Shown: positions 3,756 through 60,492 of the stretch, piece by piece
How the letters are laid out: the number at the start of each line of letters is the position of its first letter
Position numbering within the stretch: position 1 is the stretch's first letter
Sequence record: NC_042128.1
DNA from: Escherichia phage RCS47
Direction: 5' to 3' (one strand)
DNA: 64,000 nt
Translations under genes and position numbers: made by a program
The notes under the pieces: model-generated
Database searches by the model: none
Told to the model about the DNA's origin: nothing
The model's input: only the letters and a program-made list of their open reading frames with translations

Positions 3756-4192
3756 GTTTTCTCTCCAGCCTGTGCCAAGGCTTCAACTTCCAAATCGTAA
3801 GACTCAAACTCATAGTCCTGGTCGTCAACTTCTTCAGGCACTGGCAGTAAATGCCAGGCTGAGTATATCTGACCATTATCAAAACGCTCCTGGCTGTAGA
3901 GCGTCGCGGCTATGAGTGTTAGCGCCGGGCGGTCATAACGGTAAATTTTGCGAACGTCACGGTCAACGAGACGACCGAAATTACCATAACCGCGCTCCAG
4001 TAATAATTTTTTAATTTCCGGCCAGTATGGGCCATAGCTGCGGTACAGGCGGGGATTTTTCAGTAATCGCCCGCGTAGCCCTGACAGGAAGAAATCAACG
4101 TATTCGTCTTCTGTCTTTCCTAACAATGCCGTACGCAGTACCGCCTCAAGATATGTTTTATTCGGTTTTATTGTATCAGATAGTGTGGCCAT
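3752..4192 (-). CDS. Ulx-like protein (upstream of lxc)
   Basis: 146-aa ORF, ATG start, between darB and lxc. Confidence 0.45.
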   Translation of the reverse strand: MATLSDTIKPNKTYLEAVLRTALLGKTEDEYVDFFLSGLRGRLLKNPRLYRSYGPYWPEIKKLLLERGYGNFGRLVDRDVRKIYRYDRPALTLIAATLYSQERFDNGQIYSAWHLLPVPEEVDDQDYEFESYDLEVEALAQAGEKT

Positions 4193-4225
4193 ATTATGCG
4201 ACGCCCGGCGAACCGGGCGCTCCTG

Positions 4226-7200
4226 TTATGCGTATTGTTGGATGACGGCCAGAACGTCCGCCACGTTGTGTTTTGTCTCGATAATCCACCAGTTACCCGG
4301 GAAATCGCTGTTCTTCGCCTTCGCTGGCAGCCAGCGAGCGCCGAATTTCGCCTTGATTGCGTCTTTCGCACGGAAAAGAACGCCTTTCATGCCTGAGGCT
4401 TCCTGAAGCCCAAATACCTCGCCAGCGGCGAATTTTGGTGCGTACATCATCTTCAGGTCGGCGGTGGATACGCGATAATTCAGACCAAGAGACTGAGCTA
4501 TGCTGGTGGCATCACCCTGTATTGATGATAACTCTTCTTGTTTCTCGTTTCTGGCGGCAATTTCTTCCTCCGTGATGTTGCCAAGGGCCAGGTTTATCCG
4601 ATCAGCGTCGGCCTGTTTCTCTTCATCGGTGCGTCCGGCAAGAACCGTGTTAACTCTCTGCAATATCTCCACATGATTCTTGCGCATGCTGAGCAATTCC
4701 GGCGTAACCTCGTTAAGATCCACCAGCCCAAGGATGGCAAGGTCGGAAAACATTGATACCAGGTTGTAGGTCATGCGATAGCTGAGTTGACCATAGGCTG
4801 ATGGCAACTTCACCGCATCCATTTGATAGGCATCCATAAATTTAGAGCCGTCGTTTACGACATCCGCAATTGCCGGTGTGATTTTTCCTGTGGTGGCGGC
4901 CTCCCTGATTGCTGTTACCCACGATTGAGTCAGCGCGGCGACTGCATGATTCAGATTGGCTTTCCGTTCTGCTGCAATGCGCGCACTTGCTGCGTCCATT
5001 GCCTGCTTGATCTCGTCTTTATTGCTGTAAATGCCAATGGTGCCAAACTGTGCTGTGGTGATCTCATAATCTGACGCCCGGAACTCATTGGTACCGAAAA
5101 TGGCATTGGTGACTTCAAGTTCAGAATCCCCGTTACGAGTAGACCCCTGGCTTGTTTTTTCCGGCATTCTGGCGATCGCATCCGCTATTTTCTCCTGAAT
5201 TGCTTCAGGGGATAGCGTATCTCCGTATGACGCGATTACATCGCCATAATTGGAGCCAAACAATTCAACCAGGAATGTTTCTGCCGAACGGATCTGGCGG
5301 TTATTCCCTTCCGACATCATACCAAGCACCCATTTTGCAATTGACGACTTCAGCGCGCCGTCACGGCGATCCGGGTAAACCGCATGCTTCAGTGGGTCCG
5401 TATAGGTGCCAACAAAATCAATGCTATAGCCTGACTCTGTAGTCTGAACGCCGTATGAGTCAGTGATTTTGATCATGCCGCGCTGCTGGAAACGGTAGAA
5501 ATCGTCACAGGAAATGATGTCGTTAATCCCGGCGATGGAGACGCCACCACTGATTTTCTGCATAACAGCATCTTCATCGGGAGTTACATCCACCTGTTTA
5601 TCCAGCGTCTTCACATCCCAGTTACCCGATTTGGTGCCTTTGAAGGTAAAGATGATCTCCACGTCTGCGCGCGGGCTGTCGAAGTCCAGCGACTTAATGC
5701 GAACGATATCACCGGCACAATCGTAGTATTGGCCTACACGCCATGAGCGATCGCCGATAACAAGGAACTCATTCGCATGGTTAACCAGATCAGGATCAAC
5801 ATCCAGAATGCCTTTATTTATTGCATCCTCCACCAGCGGGCGCAGGCGTTTGATATCCGTCGCGGCCTTCTGAGTACGGTTCAATAATTTCTCATAGCGG
5901 GAGATGGCCTGAGAGATATTAGCCTTGCGCTGAATGGCGCTTTTCAACGACGCGCGATACTGTGCTAACAACGTACGGTCTGTGTGATGGACGCTACCCC
6001 AGCGGGCTTTCCAGTCTGCGTTATCAGCTGCTTTGGCCATTACCGCCTGTTTGAATTTAGCTACCTCGGCGGTGGTCTTTTCAAGTTCCGCTTTGCTTCG
6101 CTCTAATTCAGCGGTAAGTACCTCCGCATCCTCGCCAGCTGCGTGCTGCGCCTTGATGTAGCTCTGAAGGTCGATAGTAGCCTGTTCTTTCTGGCGAGCG
6201 CGTTGCGCGGCTTTCGCCTTATCCATTTGAACCTGCATCATTGCCAGACGTTCGCCGTCATCCTTCGCGGTATACATCTGCATTTCGATCATGTCATTGG
6301 CGTCGGCGTTCTCCATTTCCGACTTATCTGAACGGAGGATATCGGAGATCCAGCCTGCTTTACGCTTCAGCGTCTTCAATCGGTATTCATCGAAAGACCC
6401 CTTGCCGCAGTAGTAGTGAACGCGAACGCTTGCACGGTTGGAGCCAACTCGAGCACCGCGACCGTTACGTTGTGCGATGCTGGCTGGAGTCCACGGCAAC
6501 GTCAGGTGGTGGATATCCGTCGTTCCTCGATGCAGGTTGATACCCACCTCTGCCTTTTTGTTGCAGATGATGATCGGAGTCCGGCCCTCCTGGAAGTCGG
6601 CTGCAATCTTTTCCAGACCGCCCAACGACATTTCATTTTGCTGCGCGATATAGGCGTCATACAGAGCCATTTGCTCGTTGTATTTCGCTATCTGTGCATC
6701 TGTTGGTTCATCCGGTAACTCTTTCGGCGGTTTAACCGCTTTCAGTTTCTTACCGGTTTTACCTGCCTCGGCAACCGTCTGAGCATTCAGGATCCCCACC
6801 TTTGAAGGTTCAAGGTTAAGAGCATTGCAGATAATGCGCTTGAGCTTCTGGTGCTGCGTTTTTTCATCGGTGAAGATGATTTGCTTACCTTCCGGGAAAA
6901 ACTCCTTCAGCGTGGCAATCAGCTTCGCGTATTTGGGCGTAACGGGGTGAGTTACGGTCTGTTCGTCAATGCCAAACCTGGCCAGGCGCTTATTCACTTC
7001 CTGCTCGAACGCTTCCGGAACCTGTAACTGAATAAACTCGCCCTTATCTATCAGGGAGTATTGCGATTGCTGCGTGATTGAATCATCACTGTCGTCGTCT
7101 TCGCTGGTGGCTTGTTTAGGCAAACTGTCCGCCAGCTGCTGCACCGCATCGGCGTACTCCGGCAGGAAACGATAGGTGATCCGGCGATAGTACAGGTCCA

Positions 7201-31139: not shown

Positions 31140-32477
31140 GCCTTATCCAATGTGCCGCCCCCTACGCTCCTCATAGTGGGGATATAAGGCACAGTTTTCC
31201 TCCCGGCTATTTTTGCTTAAAATAGTGACATGAAACAACAGGTGTCATTCAAATTCCGGTTAAAACCAGATGGTCAACAGGAGCGTCAAATGAGGCGCTT
31301 TGCCGGAGCTTGTCGTTTCGTTTTCAACCGTGCTCTGGCGCTTCAGAATGAGAATCATGAGGCCGGTAAAAAATACATCCCTTACACGAAAATGGCTTCC
31401 TGGTTGGTTGAGTGGAAAAAAGACACTGAAACCGAATGGCTTAAAGATTCTCCCTCACAGCCATTGCAACAGTCACTGAAAGACCTTGAGCGGGCTTACA
31501 AAAACTTCTTCCAGAATCGGGCAGCTTTTCCCCGATTCAAAAAGCGGGGACAGAATGATGCATTCCGCTACCCGCAGGGTGTTAAGCTCGATCAGGAAAA
31601 CAGCCGTATTTTTCTGCCGAAACTTGGCTGGATGCGCTACCGGAATAGCCGTCAGGTCACGGGTATTGTGAAAAATGTTACTGTCAGCCAGTCCTGCGGT
31701 AAGTGGTACATCAGTATTCAGACAGAAAGAGAGGTATCCACTCCTGTTCACCCTTCAGCATCAATGGTCGGACTGGATGCTGGCGTGGCTAAACTCGCCA
31801 CGCTGTCAGATGGCACAGTCTTTGAACCTGTAAATAGTTTTCAGAAAAACCAGAAGAAGCTGGCGAGACTTCAGCGACAGTTAAGCCGCAAGGTCAAATT
31901 CAGCAACAACTGGCAGAAGCAGAAACGCAAAATACAGCGACTGCATTCCCGTATCGCAAATATCCGCAGGGACTACCTTCACAAAGTCACAACGACCGTC
32001 AGCAAAAACCACGCAATGATTGTCATTGAGGATTTGAAGGTTAAATACATGTCAAAGTCAGCGGCGGGAACGATAAGTCATCCGGGTCGCAATGTCCGGG
32101 CAAAATCAGGTTTAAACCGTTCGATACTGGATCAGGGCTGGTATGAAATGCGCCGCCAGCTTGAGTACAAGCAGCTCTGGCGTGGCGGTCAGGTGCTTGC
32201 TGTTCCGCCAGCGTACACAAGCCAGCGTTGCGCGTGCTGTGGTCATACAGCGAAAGAAAATCGCCTGTCACAAAGTAAATTCAGATGCCAGGTATGTGGA
32301 TATACAGCGAACGCCGATGTAAACGGCGCTCGTAACATTTTAGCGGCGGGGCACGCCGTACTTGCCTGTGGAGGGATGGTGCAGTCAGGCCGCCCGTTGA
32401 AGCAGGAACCCACCGAAATGATTCAGGCGACAGCCTGAACGTAGCAGGAATCCACGCCCTTCGGGGCGTGGAGGATG
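31140..32477 (+). mobile_element. TnpB-only IS200/IS605-family element (boundaries approximate)
   Basis: tnpB ORF plus 3' hairpin CCACGCCC-TTCG-GGGCGTGG at 32452-32471; fills the ddrA-ddrB junction. Confidence 0.6.
31230..32438 (+). CDS. tnpB: TnpB RNA-guided endonuclease family protein
   Basis: 402 aa; [36 protein letters not shown]..., RuvC-like motifs and CxxC...CxxC zinc finger. Confidence 0.85.
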
Positions 32478-53235: not shown

Positions 53236-54266
53236 AAACACCTCTCGTCACCCGTAATGAAATAGCCGAAGCGATCGCCTTGCATACAATCTGTATGCCG
53301 ACACGGGAGATCCCCGGCGCAATTGCCAACTATTTCATGATAACCAGGCGTTTTTATACCCGAACAGATAAGGCTGTGATCAACAGGCTACTGATAGCCG
53401 AGATCAGGGATTATTTGATTGAACAAGGACGTCTACGTTACGCAACAGTGGCAGCAGAAATGAGAAAGGAGGCACATAGAATGACCGGTAATAATTTAAA
53501 TGTTGAAAAACCAGCACCTGTTGCTTCAGCTACGCCAGCACCAGCCCTGAATGTCATCCCCAACACCGGAGACACAATCGACAGCCAAACATTGTTGAAG
53601 ATGGTCAATGAGGCACGGAAATTATGTAGCGAAAAACCAGTTCGCAACAATGATTTCATTGCCAGAGTTAAGGATGAGCTTGAAGGAGAAACCTACGAAA
53701 TTTTCGTAGGTCAAAAAAACGGCGCAGAAATAGATATTATAACCATGACCTACAAACAAGCCCTGCGAGTTGCCGCGCGCGAGTCAAAAGCGGTCCGCCG
53801 TTCGCTGATCGACAAACTGGAAGAATTACAGCAGGCAAACTCCCCTACCCCATCGATCCCCCAGACATTACCAGAAGCCCTACGCCTGGCTGCCGAGTTA
53901 GCAGAACAGAAAATGCAGTTGGAACAACAGCTGGTGGCCGCAGCCCCTAAAGTCGATTTTGCCGACCGGGTATCAGTGGCCAATGGAATCCTGATCGGGA
54001 ACTTTGCAAAGGTCGTTGGACTTAAGCAAAACGCCCTTTTCTCATGGTTGCGCCAGAATGGCATTCTCATGGCTTTTGGAGCGCGCAAAAACGTACCGCG
54101 CCAACAGTACATCAACGCCGGGTATTTCACGTTGAAAGAAGTGGTGCTGGATGATGAAAATGGCTACCAGATACGGCTGACGCCCCAATTAACGGGTAAA
54201 GGCCAGCAGTGGTTAACTCGCAAGCTACTTGATGCTGGTTTGTTAAAACCAGTAGCAATAGGTTAA
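53232..54266 (+). CDS. ant: Ant antirepressor
   Basis: 344 aa; C-terminal antirepressor domain shared with KilA (...GNFAKVVGLKQNALFSWLRQNGIL...). Confidence 0.75.
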   Translation: MKTPLVTRNEIAEAIALHTICMPTREIPGAIANYFMITRRFYTRTDKAVINRLLIAEIRDYLIEQGRLRYATVAAEMRKEAHRMTGNNLNVEKPAPVASATPAPALNVIPNTGDTIDSQTLLKMVNEARKLCSEKPVRNNDFIARVKDELEGETYEIFVGQKNGAEIDIITMTYKQALRVAARESKAVRRSLIDKLEELQQANSPTPSIPQTLPEALRLAAELAEQKMQLEQQLVAAAPKVDFADRVSVANGILIGNFAKVVGLKQNALFSWLRQNGILMAFGARKNVPRQQYINAGYFTLKEVVLDDENGYQIRLTPQLTGKGQQWLTRKLLDAGLLKPVAIG

Positions 54267-54276
54267 CAAAAGAAAA

Positions 54277-54303
54277 AACCTGCCAGCAAACTGGCAGGTT
54301 TCT
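54277..54303 (+). terminator. rho-independent terminator after ant
   Basis: AACCTGCCAG-CAAA-CTGGCAGGTT followed by TCT. Confidence 0.6.
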
Positions 54304-54343
54304 GAGCAGATCGACCAACCCGATCTGGATCGAGTCAGAAAAA

Positions 54344-54360
54344 TTTGCTCTAATAAATTT
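54344..54360. promoter_or_regulatory. C1 operator-like site upstream of kilA-repL
   Basis: TTTGCTCTAATAAATTT. Confidence 0.6.
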
Positions 54361-54429
54361 CGTTTTCTAAGTGCAAAGAATCACCATTTCGAGCTGGTGA
54401 TTGAAGGTTGATGCAAATTTGGAGAAAAA

Positions 54430-55230
54430 ATGCAACAAACATTCAATGCGGATATGAATATATCAAACCTTCATCAAAATGTCGATCCTTCAACCACTCT
54501 GCCCGTTATTTGTGGTGTTGAAATTACGACCGACCGCGCTGGCCGTTACAACCTTAATGCTCTACACAGAGCGAGCGGACTCGGTGCCCATAAAGCGCCA
54601 GCTCAATGGCTAAGAACGCTGTCAGCTAAACAGCTCATCGAAGAGCTTGAAAAAGAAACTATGCAGAATTGCATAGTTTCGTTCGAAGGCCGTGGCGGCG
54701 GCACTTTTGCCCATGAATTGCTCGCAGTGGAGTACGCTGGTTGGATTTCTCCCGCGTTTCGGCTGAAGGTAAACCAGACATTTATCGACTATCGAGCCGG
54801 AAGATTACAACCTGCTATTCCGCAGAGTCTCCCTGAAGCTCTCCGTTTGGCTGCCGACCTGGCAGAGCAAAAGCAACGGCTGGAACAAAAAATGCTTATG
54901 GATGCACCTAAAGTCGAATTCGCCGAACGCGTTGCTACCGCCAGCGGGGTTCTAATCGGCAACTATGCCAAAGTGCTCGGTCTGGGCCAAAACTATCTCT
55001 TCACCTGGTTGCGTGATAACGGAATTCTGATCGCAACCGGTGAACGCAGGAACGTCCCCAAACAAGAATACATATCCCGTGGGTATTTCACCCTTAAAGA
55101 AACCGTGATCGATACAAGCAATGGAAGCAGGATTTCTTTCACGACTCGTATAACCGGCAAAGGTCAGCAGTGGCTGATGAAGCGATTGCTTGATACTGGT
55201 GTGCTGGTACCTGTCGCGGCAACGCGCTAA
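54430..55230 (+). CDS. kilA: KilA
   Basis: 266 aa; N-terminal KilA-N-like region plus C-terminal domain paralogous to Ant. Confidence 0.7.
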   Translation: MQQTFNADMNISNLHQNVDPSTTLPVICGVEITTDRAGRYNLNALHRASGLGAHKAPAQWLRTLSAKQLIEELEKETMQNCIVSFEGRGGGTFAHELLAVEYAGWISPAFRLKVNQTFIDYRAGRLQPAIPQSLPEALRLAADLAEQKQRLEQKMLMDAPKVEFAERVATASGVLIGNYAKVLGLGQNYLFTWLRDNGILIATGERRNVPKQEYISRGYFTLKETVIDTSNGSRISFTTRITGKGQQWLMKRLLDTGVLVPVAATR

Positions 55231-55259
55231 CAGACGTAGTAAGAACCACCAGCATTGTA

Positions 55260-56105
55260 ATGCTGGCTAAAGTCACTTTCCTGAGCTGTATAACGATGAG
55301 CGATTTTACTTTTTCTGGCTATGAATTGGCCTGCTTTGTAACACACTCCGGTCTATCCCGTAGCGCCGGGCATATCCTGTCGCAATGTGCAAATCTCGCG
55401 GCAACAACCAGTGAATACTTCATTCACAAGCCTCACCGCCTGATCGCGGCAGAAACTGGTTATAGCCAATCAACCGTCGTTCGTGCATTCCGTGAAGCTG
55501 TAAACAAAGGAATCCTGTCTGTAGAGATTGTTATCGGCGATCACCGTGAACGTCGCGCTAACCTGTACCGGTTTACACCATCCTTTTTGGCCTTCGCACA
55601 ACAAGCCAAAAATGCGCTGATTGAAAGCAAATTAAAGATCTCTTCAGCGGCAACCAAGGTTAAAGCTGTTCTCGCTAAGACATTGGCTTTATTTAATTTT
55701 TTATCCACATCCCCATGTCAAAATGATACCCCCTCCCCCTGTCAGGATGACGTGGCAATAAAGAATAAGAAGTCACAAGTTAAAAAAACAAAAAGATCAG
55801 TTTCCGACGGTGCCGGAACGTCCAGACTCAAAAAATTGACTTCGTGGATCGCTGAGGCAAAAGCAAAAGCTGACAATCTGCGGTTATCCAAAAAACGCGC
55901 TCAAAAACATGAGTTCAAGCAGAAAGTAGAGGCGGCAGCGCGGAAATATGCTTACCTGAAGAACAAGCGTTCTCCTGATATTGGCGGGATATCAAACTTC
56001 GATAATCTGCCGCATTGCATGACGGTAAACGAAGCTCTTAATGCGGTTTTAGCCAAAAATAAAGATAACGAACAATGGGGTATACCGGCAGGATTCAGAG
56101 GGTGA
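55260..56105 (+). CDS. repL: RepL lytic replication initiator
   Basis: 281 aa directly after kilA. Confidence 0.65.
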   Translation: MLAKVTFLSCITMSDFTFSGYELACFVTHSGLSRSAGHILSQCANLAATTSEYFIHKPHRLIAAETGYSQSTVVRAFREAVNKGILSVEIVIGDHRERRANLYRFTPSFLAFAQQAKNALIESKLKISSAATKVKAVLAKTLALFNFLSTSPCQNDTPSPCQDDVAIKNKKSQVKKTKRSVSDGAGTSRLKKLTSWIAEAKAKADNLRLSKKRAQKHEFKQKVEAAARKYAYLKNKRSPDIGGISNFDNLPHCMTVNEALNAVLAKNKDNEQWGIPAGFRG

Positions 56106-56139
56106 TAGATTGCTCTAATCTGGAGTCACCTGGCGTTTT

Positions 56140-57470
56140 CAGCGAAAAACCGCCGAGAACCCTCGCCCAATGCGGGCGGGGAGGAAAGGCGGAAAAGCCC
56201 GAAGGGCTTTAAAAATATTATTACGGTGTTAGCATAAAAACCTGTACCAATGAGCGGTGACTATGTTAAGAGCAACAAAAGTACGCATCTACCCGACACC
56301 AGAACAGGCTGAATTTATCAACGCCCAGTTCGGTGCAGTGCGTTTTGTGTACAACAAAGCTCTGCATATCAAGAAACATTCTTACCAGCGGCACCGCGTA
56401 AATTTAAACCCGCGTAAAGACCTCAAACCACTGCTTGCAGTGGCGAAGAAATCCCGCCGGTATGGATGGCTTAAAGAATATGATTCTATTGCGTTGCAGC
56501 AGGCGGTAATTAACCTCGACGTGGCTTTTTCTAACTTTTTCAATCCGAAACTGAAAGCAGGTAAACCTACCTTTAAAAGTAAACACGGCAGACAATCTAG
56601 CTATCATTGTGTTGGCATAAAAGTCCTTGATGGTGCGATAAAAATACCGAAAATCTTGCCGATTGAAGCGCGTTTACATCGTGAAATTACGGGAATGCTG
56701 AAAAGTATCACGTTGAGCCGCAGCGCAACCGGGAAATACTACGCGTCGTTACTCTGTGACGACGGGATGGAAGCGCCGGCAAAGCCCGCACTGATATCAA
56801 ATGTGACAGGGCTGGATATGGGGCTGGCGCATTTTGTCATCAAATCGGACGGCAATAAAATTGCCAGTCCCCGCCACCTAATCAATGCAAGTCGCAACCT
56901 GCGCCGGAAGCAGAAAGCACTGTCCCGTAAGAAAAAAGGGAGCGCAAACAGGCGCAAAGCCAGAATACAACTTGCAGCCGTTCACGAACGGGTAGCCAGT
57001 GCCCGTGCCGATTTCCAGCACAAGTTATCTCGCGCAATTGTTGACGAAAACCAAGCGGTAATTGTCGAAACATTGAAAACGGCAAATATGATGAAAAATC
57101 ACCATCTGGCTCGTGCGATAGGCGATGCTGGATGGTCTGGATTCATCACAAAACTGGAATACAAAGCAACAGAGAAAGGTGTGCATCTGGTGAAACTGGA
57201 TCAATGGTTCGCCAGTTCGAAAACCTGCCACTGCTGCGGTCACAAAATGTCGGAGATGCCATTACATAAGCGCATCTGGCAGTGTCCAGAGTGTGGAGTT
57301 GAACATGACCGCGATATCAATGCGGCGCTCAACATCAAACGCAAGGGCATACTGGAATTACAAGCGGCGGGACTCGTCGTTTCTGCCCATGGAGGCCAGC
57401 GTAAATCCGTCACACAGACGGTTGCGGCTTAAGAAGTGGGAAGCCTCGCCCGACAGGGCGGGGAGCAGTC
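56140..57470 (+). mobile_element. second TnpB-only IS200/IS605-family element (boundaries approximate)
   Basis: near-identical hairpins CTCGCCC-N5/4-GGGCGGG at 56162-56180 and 57445-57462 bracket the tnpB ORF. Confidence 0.6.
56263..57432 (+). CDS. tnpB: TnpB RNA-guided endonuclease family protein (different subfamily from 31230-32438)
   Basis: 389 aa from ATG 56263; MLRATKVRIYPTPEQ..., C-terminal CHCCGH...CPECG zinc finger. Confidence 0.85.
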   Translation: MLRATKVRIYPTPEQAEFINAQFGAVRFVYNKALHIKKHSYQRHRVNLNPRKDLKPLLAVAKKSRRYGWLKEYDSIALQQAVINLDVAFSNFFNPKLKAGKPTFKSKHGRQSSYHCVGIKVLDGAIKIPKILPIEARLHREITGMLKSITLSRSATGKYYASLLCDDGMEAPAKPALISNVTGLDMGLAHFVIKSDGNKIASPRHLINASRNLRRKQKALSRKKKGSANRRKARIQLAAVHERVASARADFQHKLSRAIVDENQAVIVETLKTANMMKNHHLARAIGDAGWSGFITKLEYKATEKGVHLVKLDQWFASSKTCHCCGHKMSEMPLHKRIWQCPECGVEHDRDINAALNIKRKGILELQAAGLVVSAHGGQRKSVTQTVAA

Positions 57471-57770
57471 ACTATGGATTTTCTTTGGCGCGGTCTGGCC
57501 ATTAGGGGTCATGTTTGCTGCAACGTTTCTTCTGATGTGGATATTCACCCTTCCAGGTGATTTCTATAGAAAAAAAGCCAGACATTGATACACCCGCTGC
57601 GGTGTGCTTGAGGCTATCTGCTTCAGGCATTCCCCGAAAAGCAGATAGAAGAAAGCCCCAGTAAACATTATGCGTCCCGCACAACGCTTAACATTAACCG
57701 GGGCCATACCTATGCTTAGCGTGCTTAGATTAATCCTCTCCTCTGTCAAGGAGCAAGGAATTTTTTACTG

Positions 57771-58403
57771 CTATGCCGCCTTTCCAGTTATGGATTCAGC
57801 GACCAGAACAACCCCATGCTTACTTCGATCTGGGTGTTCACTCCATATCTCGGATTCAGGAATACTTACCCCGTCATAGCAAACACGTTCGCCGTCAAAC
57901 GGGTAATACTGAGCGGCATCGGTGTCGAGGATAAACACTTTTAGCTCGGAAGAGCGACGGGCGATATGTTGCCAAAGAGCTTTTCCACCTTCGTATTGCT
58001 CATTATCACTGAGCAAAACAACACCAGCTTTTGAGGCTACGGTTTCGTAAACAAAAGTAGCTAAACCGACATCCCGGACAGTTCCATCAACCACGATACC
58101 TTCAATCTGGGCAACATCGCTATCCTCCCAGAACTTCCTTACCAGTACGCCTTCAAGCTGCGGGCGACGTTGAAGTTCAAGAGTAGCGACAACCTTATGC
58201 CGCATATCACCATCGATAACAGAAGGCGCAGCCTCTATTACAGCTGCAAATGGGGTTTTGGAATCCCATATAACCTGGTAAAGCACACCCTGGATGGTAA
58301 CTCCGTCCAGGATCGAAAATCGACGAGCGACAGTACCCGGGGAGTACGACATTGGAATCACAGCCATTTTAGAGTCCCCCTTTAACAGTACAGGCACAAA
58401 CAT
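57771..58403 (-). CDS. hypothetical phage protein (PmgF position)
   Basis: 210-aa ORF; synteny only. Confidence 0.35.
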   Translation of the reverse strand: MFVPVLLKGDSKMAVIPMSYSPGTVARRFSILDGVTIQGVLYQVIWDSKTPFAAVIEAAPSVIDGDMRHKVVATLELQRRPQLEGVLVRKFWEDSDVAQIEGIVVDGTVRDVGLATFVYETVASKAGVVLLSDNEQYEGGKALWQHIARRSSELKVFILDTDAAQYYPFDGERVCYDGVSIPESEIWSEHPDRSKHGVVLVAESITGKAA

Positions 58404-58538
58404 CTACCTCAATAATTGTAGTTTATTAGAACATTAATAATCTAACATAAAACTCCAGACAATGTTATCGATGCATTTTTATATAAAATAGTTATAAAAA
58501 AAGCTCCCGAAGGAGCTTTAAAATACAAGGGATGACTC

Positions 58539-59048
58539 TTAATCCCACTCAATCCAGTTGTAGACGATACGAAGTGACGGGCGCACAGCGGCAGTCACAT
58601 CTTCGGTACTAAAGTCGATTGCATCACTGTAGATTTTGCAGTCCAACATTTCAATTGTTGTAGCAGCTTTTGTCACAGCGTTAACCCCGGAAGATTTGGA
58701 TTCAGGGGTAGCAGCCATCGTGATATCAACATAGTCCTTCGCCGCAATGCGATCCTTAATGAACTGAAGAATATCGCCTTCGATAGTCTCCACGCACTGG
58801 ACCTGGATTTCCCCAGAGTTTCGAATTGGTCCGTGCTGGTTGAACTTCACACCATTCGGACCATAGTCCTCCACATCCTCGCGAGTCATTTCAGGGATTT
58901 GCGACGTACGAACAAGTACACTGATATCTTCATAGCCTGCAAAAGTGAGCTGGAATTCAGAAGATACCAGTCGTTCGCCTTTGGCCGCGTTGGCAGTATA
59001 GCGGCCCTTAATAAATTTACGGTTTCCCTTAGTGTTATTGTGCCCCAT
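58539..59048 (-). CDS. late structural protein (BplB position)
   Basis: 169 aa; synteny only. Confidence 0.35.
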   Translation of the reverse strand: MGHNNTKGNRKFIKGRYTANAAKGERLVSSEFQLTFAGYEDISVLVRTSQIPEMTREDVEDYGPNGVKFNQHGPIRNSGEIQVQCVETIEGDILQFIKDRIAAKDYVDITMAATPESKSSGVNAVTKAATTIEMLDCKIYSDAIDFSTEDVTAAVRPSLRIVYNWIEWD

Positions 59049-59059
59049 ATAAAATCCTT

Positions 59060-59641
59060 TTACTGGAACGCCCGAACAATATCGGAGCTGTTATATATCG
59101 AAGAACCGGTCAACTGGAGGTTGACGGTGTTTTTCAGGAAATATCCATTACTGTCCCTTGGCGCATCGAGATCAAAACTTAAGTCCTGGATAGCGACATC
59201 GGTGATGTTGATCCGGCGACCAATGTTTAGCGTCACACGTTCCGGGATTCGACCACCAACATTGGCCGCTTTTAGTTCCGGGCTAATCATGGCTGTCAAC
59301 GCGGCGATAGCGCCTGAAACTTCAATGAATGGATTGTTCAAAGCAATGAAAGTTACGGGCAGCGTGAACGTCGGCGGTGTCCCCCCTTCCCAAACCATTA
59401 AGCTGTTCCAACGGGCAACCGACGTTGTTTCAGTACCTACTTGCACAAACCCCCCCAGAGCGCCAGAAACAGACCCCATGGACATACCAGTAAACGGTGC
59501 TTCCCAATTCTGGGCCATGTTCATTGCCGCCCCCTGGCTGATATATCCGGTAACCTGGTACTGAGAGTTCGTTAAAGTAACTTTCAGAAATGGCGATACA
59601 CCATCAGCCTGGCTGTAAACCCCATAAGGTATAGGTGCCAT
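59060..59641 (-). CDS. late structural protein (PmgG position)
   Basis: 193 aa; synteny only. Confidence 0.35.
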   Translation of the reverse strand: MAPIPYGVYSQADGVSPFLKVTLTNSQYQVTGYISQGAAMNMAQNWEAPFTGMSMGSVSGALGGFVQVGTETTSVARWNSLMVWEGGTPPTFTLPVTFIALNNPFIEVSGAIAALTAMISPELKAANVGGRIPERVTLNIGRRINITDVAIQDLSFDLDAPRDSNGYFLKNTVNLQLTGSSIYNSSDIVRAFQ

Positions 59642-59676
59642 TCAAGTTAAAGGCCGGAGTTCTCCGGCCTCCTCCT

Positions 59677-60492
59677 TTAGCCAAGGCGCTTACGGCGCAG
59701 TTTCATTGACTTTTTGCGGGCAAGTTTTGCCGCACCGGTCTGGGCTTTTCGACGCGCTTTTTTCAGCGCCGATTTTTGAGCCGCAGTCAGACGTTTTTTA
59801 CGCAGGCGTTTACGGATGAGTTTGATCTCACCGTTACGAACAACCTTCTTAAATGCTTCAGTCAGCATTTCATCAGAAGTGCCAGCAACAACAAACGCCG
59901 CTTCCAGTTCGTCACGATCGTCGCTATCTAAACCAGCGATAGAGGCACCAACATCAGCAGCTGCGTCGTCGTCTTCATCGTCAGCCAGTGCTTCGATCAG
60001 GTCATCATCTACACCGCATGCTGCGAGGAAGTCAGCAACATTTGCCCATGCTTCGTTATAGGCATCGTCCTGTTCTTCTGTAACTTCGGAGTCGTCGTCA
60101 TCAGAGATACCAGCGATAGCCTGAACGAAACCATCAAGGGAGTCGAAAGTCAGATCACCGCTATCAGCCCAGGCGAAAACGGCGTCGGCCGCATCACTCA
60201 ACGCATTCTGCATAGCACTTCGATTTGCAGCTTCCAGAATCATCTGGTGCGCCTGTTCAACGGTCCATTCTTTACCTTCTTTCCCTTCCAGGATTTGCCC
60301 AGGAGCCTGGTCAGGTTGAACGTTCTCGTTAATCTGTGCCGCCGGTTCCGGATTATTATTAATAACCGGATCTGTTGGCGGTTCGGCGCTTGCCCGGGCA
60401 GACTCCATCAGCTGCACAGGATCAGAATTCAAAGCGAAACGGGACAGTCCATTCCCCAAAAATGCCCCGGATTGAAAAAAGTTTTTGCTCAT
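59677..60492 (-). CDS. late protein with acidic core and basic C-terminus (gene 21 position)
   Basis: 271 aa; synteny only. Confidence 0.35.
   Translation of the reverse strand: MSKNFFQSGAFLGNGLSRFALNSDPVQLMESARASAEPPTDPVINNNPEPAAQINENVQPDQAPGQILEGKEGKEWTVEQAHQMILEAANRSAMQNALSDAADAVFAWADSGDLTFDSLDGFVQAIAGISDDDDSEVTEEQDDAYNEAWANVADFLAACGVDDDLIEALADDEDDDAAADVGASIAGLDSDDRDELEAAFVVAGTSDEMLTEAFKKVVRNGEIKLIRKRLRKKRLTAAQKSALKKARRKAQTGAAKLARKKSMKLRRKRLG

Follow-up and report, generated by a model that had tools for sequence, protein, structure and literature searches.

Directly downstream of its lytic replication gene repL, Escherichia phage RCS47 carries a gene for a TnpB protein, which raises the questions of what kind of element this gene belongs to, how the element came to lie there and whether it serves the phage-plasmid or only itself. 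The window analysed here, a continuous stretch of 64,000 nt, comes from a P1-like (Punavirus) phage-plasmid: kilA (54430–55230) and repL (55260–56105) are 97–99% identical to their counterparts in P1, P7 and relatives, and the region is found at 100% identity in CP099080.1, an E. coli plasmid of 99,269 bp. Our analysis assigns, with high confidence, positions 56143–57472, beginning 37 nt past the repL stop, to a non-autonomous insertion sequence of the IS200/IS605 family, namely a tnpA-less, chimeric derivative of ISEc46. It is an element of a known, already catalogued kind, and identical copies are annotated as TnpB in public plasmid records.

The boundaries of the element are defined by comparison with related plasmids. 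Homology to the IS-free relatives vB_EcoM-673R5 and Punavirus P1 MH422554 breaks at 56142/56143 and at 57472/57473, and an exact empty site is found in plasmid pExPEC1, where 56142 is joined to 57473 (...TTTTCAG|TATGGATTTTC...). Because pExPEC1 joins these two positions directly, the element spans 56143–57472 (+ strand, 1330 bp) with an unambiguous junction and no target duplication, and it carries no terminal inverted repeats. The first-pass annotation had placed an element at 56125–57470, which was correct as to its presence and slightly off at both bounds. Immediately to the left lies TCAG (56139–56142, + strand), which belongs to the flanking DNA and occupies the position of the left cleavage or target tetranucleotide and of the presumed TAM for TnpB. 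Insertion 3' of a specific tetra- or pentanucleotide, without target-site duplication and with a precise empty site, is as expected of the IS200/IS605 family. The case for a simple insertion is drawn from a single type of empty site, that of pExPEC1, and this plasmid could itself be an excision product. Diverged copies with 81–85% identity, carried by many plasmids of E. coli, Salmonella and Klebsiella, match this 1.33-kb span and no more, and tnpA is absent from them as well. In addition, 80 further loci came from a scan that took one genome per species, and in more than 70 of these the conserved sequence stops at ...GGGGAGCAGTCAC, ending in AGTCAC, with unrelated flanks beyond.

Two hairpins that the first-pass annotation had described, CTCGCCC-AATGC-GGGCGGG at 56162–56180 and CTCGCCC-GACA-GGGCGGG at 57445–57462, are present exactly as claimed. 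They had been proposed as the left- and right-end palindromes of an IS200/IS605 element, and the comparative ends bear this out: the hairpins lie 19 and about 10 nt inside the termini that the exact empty site and numerous independent copies define. Both extend to 8 bp with one T·G pair (56161–56181 and 57444–57463). The left subterminal imperfect palindrome, IP_L (CCTCGCCC-AATGC-GGGCGGGG, 56161–56181, + strand), starts 18–19 nt from the left end and folds as DNA at –13.8 kcal/mol (z = –2.6). Its right counterpart, IP_R (CCTCGCCC-GACA-GGGCGGGG, 57444–57463, + strand), doubles as the last stem-loop of the RNA scaffold described below; within its stem (helix 9) three pairs are changed on both sides, the innermost pair being CG in 27 sequences and GC in 19, and the loops of relatives range from 4 to 25 nt. 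In copies from Photorhabdus, Serratia, Aeromonas, Vibrio, Halomonas and others, comprising 35 distinct left ends and more than 70 right ends, the hairpins keep their positions, and they are no chance occurrence. Subterminal imperfect palindromes at both ends, in place of terminal inverted repeats, are a trait of the IS200/IS605 family. An outer stem, 56150–56154 paired with 56188–56192, encloses IP_L and its guide in the DNA fold and by eye appears to covary among relatives (CGCC/GGCG, CCGC/GCGG, CCCC/GGGG).

The sequences next to the palindromes correspond to the guide and cleavage code of IS608 from Helicobacter pylori. In IS608, cleavage occurs at TTAC, 19 nt 5' of the left palindrome, and at TCAA, 10 nt 3' of the right palindrome (PMC3201880, PMC5934647), and the guides AAAG (left) and GAAT (right) lie 5' of the hairpin foot (PMC3201880; PMC5934647). 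By sequence correspondence, the window element would have a left guide G_L of GAAC (56157–56160, + strand) directly 5' of the IP_L foot, in the position of the IS608 G_L (PMC3201880), a right guide G_R of GAAG (57440–57443, + strand), parallel to the IS608 pair of G_R GAAT and C_R TCAA (PMC5934647), and a right cleavage tetranucleotide C_R of TCAC (57469–57472, + strand), which forms the last bases of the element. The spacing also corresponds, with 18–19 nt on the left and 9–10 nt between the palindrome foot and the terminus on the right. Both systems thus share subterminal hairpins of the kind recognized as single-stranded DNA, cleavage spacings of about 19 and about 10 nt, and 4-nt guides 5' of the hairpins, with TTA-N pairing with AAA-N' on the left and TCA-N with GAA-N' on the right (PMC3201880, PMC5934647). 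They differ in the tetranucleotides themselves, which are TTAC/AAAG and TCAA/GAAT in IS608 and TTAG/AAAC (or TCAG/GAAC) and TCAC/GAAG here, and in that IS608 carries tnpA, which the window element lacks.

Among relatives, G_L AAAC occurs together with the flank TTAG in 32 of the 35 distinct left ends, and the AAAC/TTAG pairing (T-A, T-A, A·A, G-C) reproduces the left pattern of IS608. G_L GAAC is accompanied by TCAG in the window element and in an 85%-identical copy on another phage-plasmid (NZ_JBYCWU010000003.1), and on the right G_R GAAG and the terminus TCAC occur together in 68 of 73 ends. The odd flank of the window copy, TCAG, is what its own G_L would predict, which argues for a genuine TnpA-mediated insertion.

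Between these ends lies an intact tnpB gene (+ strand), which runs from ATG at 56263 or GTG at 56257 to 57432 and encodes 389 or 391 aa. Its product contains the Pfam domains HTH_OrfB_IS605, OrfB_IS605 and Cas12f1-like_TNB, scores 343 bits against the NCBIfam model guided_TnpB and shares 98.97% amino-acid identity with ISEc46 TnpB. It is homologous over its full length to ISDra2 TnpB of Deinococcus radiodurans (PDB 8EXA/8H1J; phmmer E = 1e-74), and the RuvC triad D185, E269 and D351 aligns with D191, E278 and D361 of ISDra2. The CHCC and CPEC motifs of the zinc finger begin at residues 322 and 341, respectively, so that the protein has both the D-E-D triad and the zinc finger of a guided nuclease. 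The window holds another TnpB gene at 31230–32438 (+ strand; 402 aa, guided_TnpB 392.7 bits), named insQ/ydcM in some records. The 389-aa protein does belong to a different lineage, as had been noted, with 29% identity between the two; the description of the two elements as unrelated does not hold, since both encode TnpB homologues.

Covariance analysis near the right end, a check proposed in the first-pass annotation, revealed a strongly covarying structure at 57362–57463. We aligned the last 260 nt of 54 distinct copies and evaluated the alignment with RNAalifold and pair counts. The presumed scaffold core of the omega-RNA (reRNA) occupies 57362–57472 (+ strand) and takes in the right end together with the last 71 nt of tnpB; it contains four covarying stem regions, with RNAalifold stems at 57362–57369/57375–57382, 57386–57390/57436–57440, 57394–57397/57426–57429, 57407–57411/57417–57421 and 57444–57451/57456–57463. 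In this 3' part of the consensus (57362–57463), 97.6% of cells are paired across the 41 predicted pairs, compared to 35–54% when the partners are slid by 1–3 columns. Compensatory changes are found in 20 pairs, and none of 500 shuffles reached the observed values. The stem 57407–57411/57417–57421, for instance, occurs as CCGTC/GACGG, CTGGC/GCCAG, CTCGA/TCGAG and CCGGT/ACCGG. Two longer-range helices of the consensus are unproven: variation in 57233–57237/57465–57469 and 57257–57260/57346–57349 is nearly one-sided, with a single pair of the second helix changed on both sides in four sequences. It is covariation and not folding energy that speaks for the RNA, since the single-sequence fold of 57340–57472 gives a z of only –1.9. 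A conserved structured RNA lying across the 3' end of tnpB and the right end, with its limit at the element boundary, is a further hallmark of guided nucleases. No omega-RNA family of Rfam was matched in a scan of 54000–60000 (E ≤ 1), whose one genuine hit was the sok/hok-type match described below, and the promoter scan gave 4 sites against 2.5 expected, the promoter and terminator scan together being no richer than in shuffled sequence.

In ISDra2, the reRNA is about 150 nt long and its last ~16 nt, derived from the right flank, serve as the guide (PMC8612924). The last ~110 nt of the window element would presumably be the corresponding omega-RNA. By analogy with ISDra2 (PMC8612924), its predicted guide segment lies in the flanking DNA at 57473–57492 (+ strand), TATGGATTTTCTTTGGCGCG, so that the guide would read TATGGATTTTCTTTGG(CGCG). 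The two systems share full-length TnpB homology, an identical catalytic triad and a structured RNA that reaches from the 3' end of tnpB through the right end as far as the transposon boundary (PMC8612924); they differ in the TAM or target, which is TTGAT for ISDra2 and presumably TTAG or TCAG here. The sequence identical to the predicted guide follows CTTAG in the IS-free vB_EcoM-673R5 and Punavirus P1 MH422554 and follows TTCAG in pExPEC1.

What the element lacks is the transposase of its family. No Y1 transposase TnpA was found in the element or elsewhere in the 64-kb window (tblastn, best E = 0.57), whereas full-length ISEc46 has its own Y1 (HUH) TnpA (NCBIfam transpos_IS200, 141.8 bits), which PGAP names 'IS200/IS605-like element ISEc46 family transposase' in NZ_CP018206.1. 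The window copy therefore depends on TnpA supplied in trans and is non-autonomous, like the tnpB-only members of the family. In the full-length ISEc46 of NZ_CP018206.1, an AAAGCCC-GAA-GGGCTTT hairpin follows directly past the 3' end of tnpA (– strand); the same hairpin stands in the window at 56189–56211 (– strand) and, from its position, looks like the terminator of the lost tnpA, although it is not among the hits of the terminator scan.

A second departure from ISEc46 concerns the left end. Chromosomal ISEc46 copies are 99.1% identical at the nucleotide level over 56248–57472 and 89% identical over the left 70 nt. The first ~100 nt of the element are 91% identical to the copy in NZ_JBYCWU010000003.1 and 77% identical to ISEc46, and from about 56250 on the sequence is 99–100% that of ISEc46. 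Furthermore, 56143–56242 is 100% identical to the left end of a tnpA-less lineage of 81% overall identity (NZ_CP083587.1 and others); in the alignment to NZ_CP083587.1 the match covers query positions 99–200, two flanking bases included. The left end and tnpB leader (56143–56247, + strand) thus come from this tnpA-less sister lineage and not from ISEc46, and the window copy is a recombinant, since a sister-lineage left end is joined to an ISEc46 body. Shared with ISEc46 are tnpB and the right end (99.1%), the right hairpin, G_R GAAG, the terminus TCAC and the left hairpin sequence; ISEc46 differs in its length of 1763 bp, the divergent tnpA between its left end and tnpB, G_L AAAC and the flank TTAG. 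Shared with the tnpA-less IS1341-type relatives (NZ_JBYCWU010000003.1, NZ_CP083587.1), which also occur on phage-plasmids, are the order left end–tnpB–right end within about 1.33 kb, an identical or nearly identical left end, G_L GAAC and the TCAG flank; these differ in the central part of tnpB, which is 70–86% identical, the body of the window copy being that of ISEc46. With tnpA absent and 77% identity over the first 100 nt, near-identity to ISEc46 does not extend across the whole element, which, judged by its sequence, is a derivative or chimera of ISEc46 and not an isoform of the full IS. Both the loss of tnpA and the chimeric make-up had gone unnoticed in the first-pass annotation. The copy in NZ_JBYCWU010000003.1 itself shares 98–99% identity with the window element and ISEc46 over the last 400 nt (zinc finger, RNA scaffold and right end) and 70–80% in mid-tnpB, which suggests that the lineages have recently exchanged the guide-RNA module; recombination looks common among family members.

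The DNA that stood at the site was not rlfA/rlfB, the genes that follow repL in P1. The IS-free sisters vB_EcoM-673R5 and Punavirus P1 MH422554 already lack rlfA/rlfB at this place and carry a small membrane ORF and a hok/sok-type region there, ruling out the displacement of rlfA/rlfB by the element; compared with the nearest IS-free relatives of the window, the order of operator Op55, rlfA and rlfB after repL is found in P1 itself only. In Punavirus P1 MH422554 (locus L002) the ORF at the site reads through and encodes a two-helix membrane protein of about 81 aa (L002 3457–3700), spanning a 142-bp segment and the DNA to its right; in vB_EcoM-673R5 this ORF has a 1-nt frameshift. The window and pExPEC1 lack the first 142 bp of the membrane ORF, a segment that begins after TTTTCAG and ends in CTTAG, both target-type tetranucleotides, and the majority of IS-free relatives are set apart from the window by this segment in addition to the element. 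The insertion may have entered an already deleted backbone; two copies may have inserted and then recombined with each other, a history that would account for the chimera as well; or pExPEC1 may be an excision product. Among 5426 complete E. coli genomes, neither intermediate junction was found, be it 142 bp-CTTAG running into the left end or the right end running into TTTGAGG-142 bp. The window retains the C-terminal half of the membrane ORF, and a GTG at 57436 in the right end opens a 50-aa ORF (57436–57588, + strand) in which right-end sequence is joined to this remaining half. Further downstream, 57602–57775 (+ strand) is a full-length match to the Rfam sok/hok model (68.5 bits, gathering score 59, E = 4e-14); no Hok peptide can be read after the model's final AUG, and the region looks like a hok/sok leader without the toxin gene. 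From about 57740 on, the window follows vB_EcoM-673R5 (210-aa ORF, 57771–58403, – strand) and not Punavirus P1 MH422554 or pExPEC1 (mokW/hokD).

Related insertions are found in the same backbone and beyond it. In NZ_CP128941.1 (locus L005, 2501–2538), a 38-bp right-end remnant extending to AGTCAC is followed by the right flank of the window, with an IS3-family pseudogene directly upstream; this is a decayed form of the window-type allele. In Kluyvera cryocrescens NZ_BCTM01000057.1 (locus L064, ~3317), an ISEc46-type right end abuts GGATCATGTTTGC, after CATTAG in the same P1-like backbone and 36 nt rightward of where the window element is inserted. Its TnpB comprises residues 132–389, 100% identical, with the N-terminus truncated, and the copy is an independent insertion into a neighbouring TTAG. 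The copy in NZ_JBYCWU010000003.1 (locus L007, 2507–3837), which is tnpA-less and lies on a phage-plasmid with portal, Icd-like and Rha genes, is 109 nt from the 3' end of a RepL homologue (3947–4909; 29% identical, E = 4e-26). The two independent insertions just downstream of lytic-replication genes may reflect chance or a permissive site. A link of orientation to the forks leaving oriL was dropped, since the two elements are oppositely oriented relative to their repL genes.

These neighbours bear on whether the window element is a decaying relic in which tnpA and 142 bp of adjacent DNA were deleted and protein, RNA and ends are all inactive. The absence of tnpA, the truncation of the small membrane-protein gene relative to Punavirus P1 MH422554 and the existence of such forms nearby (the right-end-only remnant and the TnpB truncated at residue 132) would fit this reading, but the ORF is full-length, retains every catalytic and zinc-finger residue and shares 98.97% identity with ISEc46 TnpB, both ends are complete, and the left guide and flank fit the code. 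Furthermore, the layout without tnpA is that of an established lineage whose 81–85% diverged members occur in many plasmids, which points to propagation rather than decay. We consider a relic highly improbable; the element and the relic forms around it are the normal turnover of an IS on a plasmid.

The earlier suggestion that two TnpB genes on one phage-plasmid are unusual does not stand up. The first element, which lies next to ddrA, is found with its flanks in 72 PLSDB plasmids and is a common fixture of P1-like plasmids, the ISEc46 family is widespread (1121 of 5426 complete E. coli genomes, with 493 places on chromosomes), and many plasmids carry two copies of the relatives. At the repL site, by comparison, the second element is present in 5 PLSDB plasmids at 99.4–100% identity, as well as in further RefSeq plasmids. 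With only 5 PLSDB carriers here and a truncated remnant in NZ_CP128941.1, it is neither fixed nor obviously under selection.

A preferred course of events can be proposed for the mobile, chimeric IS. The element would have arrived by single-strand 'peel and paste' transposition with a Y1 TnpA acting in trans, for example that of a chromosomal ISEc46, and its left guide GAAC would have selected a TCAG target; later or earlier than the insertion, its body would have been swapped with ISEc46 by homologous recombination. The omega-RNA, with TATGGATTTTCTTTGG as its 3' ~16 nt, would direct TnpB to cleave the unoccupied site (TAM followed by guide sequence), so that the element would be more readily retained or copied, as has been shown in ISDra2. 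How the reRNA, the TAM and donor-joint cleavage work has been described for ISDra2 (PMC8612924). Whether the window protein would cut its own vacant site (TTCAG) is uncertain, because it is 99% ISEc46-like and ISEc46 sits after TTAG, while the window copy sits after TCAG. Our literature search returned no paper with TTAG as the TAM of a TnpB, and ISEc46 appeared only in the mobile-element lists of resistance-genomics papers.

Alternatively, TnpB and its RNA may have been domesticated as a fixed, immobile weapon or regulator, for example one that excludes or converts rival P1-like plasmids. The window without tnpA, the intact catalytic triad, the retention of the same insertion at 99.4–100% identity in several plasmids and the perfect match of the guide, over 20 nt or longer, by the canonical CTTAG in the common IS-free P1-like backbone agree with such a role, and the 142-bp segment ending in CTTAG is found at up to about 430 places in E. 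coli plasmids, a figure that includes matches to element left ends. However, both ends are intact and fit the transposition code, a mobile IS with 99% identity to the element resides in roughly 10% of E. coli chromosomes and can supply TnpA, the few carriers at the site and the truncated remnant speak against fixation, and the cutting of vacant sites is what a selfish TnpB normally does (PMC8612924). We regard domestication as improbable and retain the reading of a mobile, non-autonomous IS.

A related proposal, that among P1-like phage-plasmids the element serves as a device for RNA-guided drive or exclusion, has a somewhat better though still small chance of being correct; the predicted guide TATGGATTTTCTTTGG... 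matches the site after the canonical CTTAG. Since the 99%-identical ISEc46 relatives are flanked by TTAG, acceptance of TTAG by the window TnpB is suggested, and if so, sibling P1-like plasmids would be cut. Under this proposal, TnpB would cut incoming or co-resident siblings, leading to their elimination or, through repair, to their conversion to the IS-bearing, 142-bp-deleted allele. Such cutting of siblings would be standard TnpB homing, which between competing plasmids could act as exclusion or drive; our search found no paper on TnpB-mediated plasmid competition.

As a member of a well-described family, the element has small discovery value in itself. It offers a natural illustration of the IS608 guide and target code, in which G_L GAAC versus AAAC tracks the flank TCAG versus TTAG, and an example of recombination between IS lineages. 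In addition, as a tnpB-only element whose predicted guide is aimed at a conserved site in sibling plasmids, it may provide a simple E. coli/P1 system in which TnpB homing can be set against plasmid competition.
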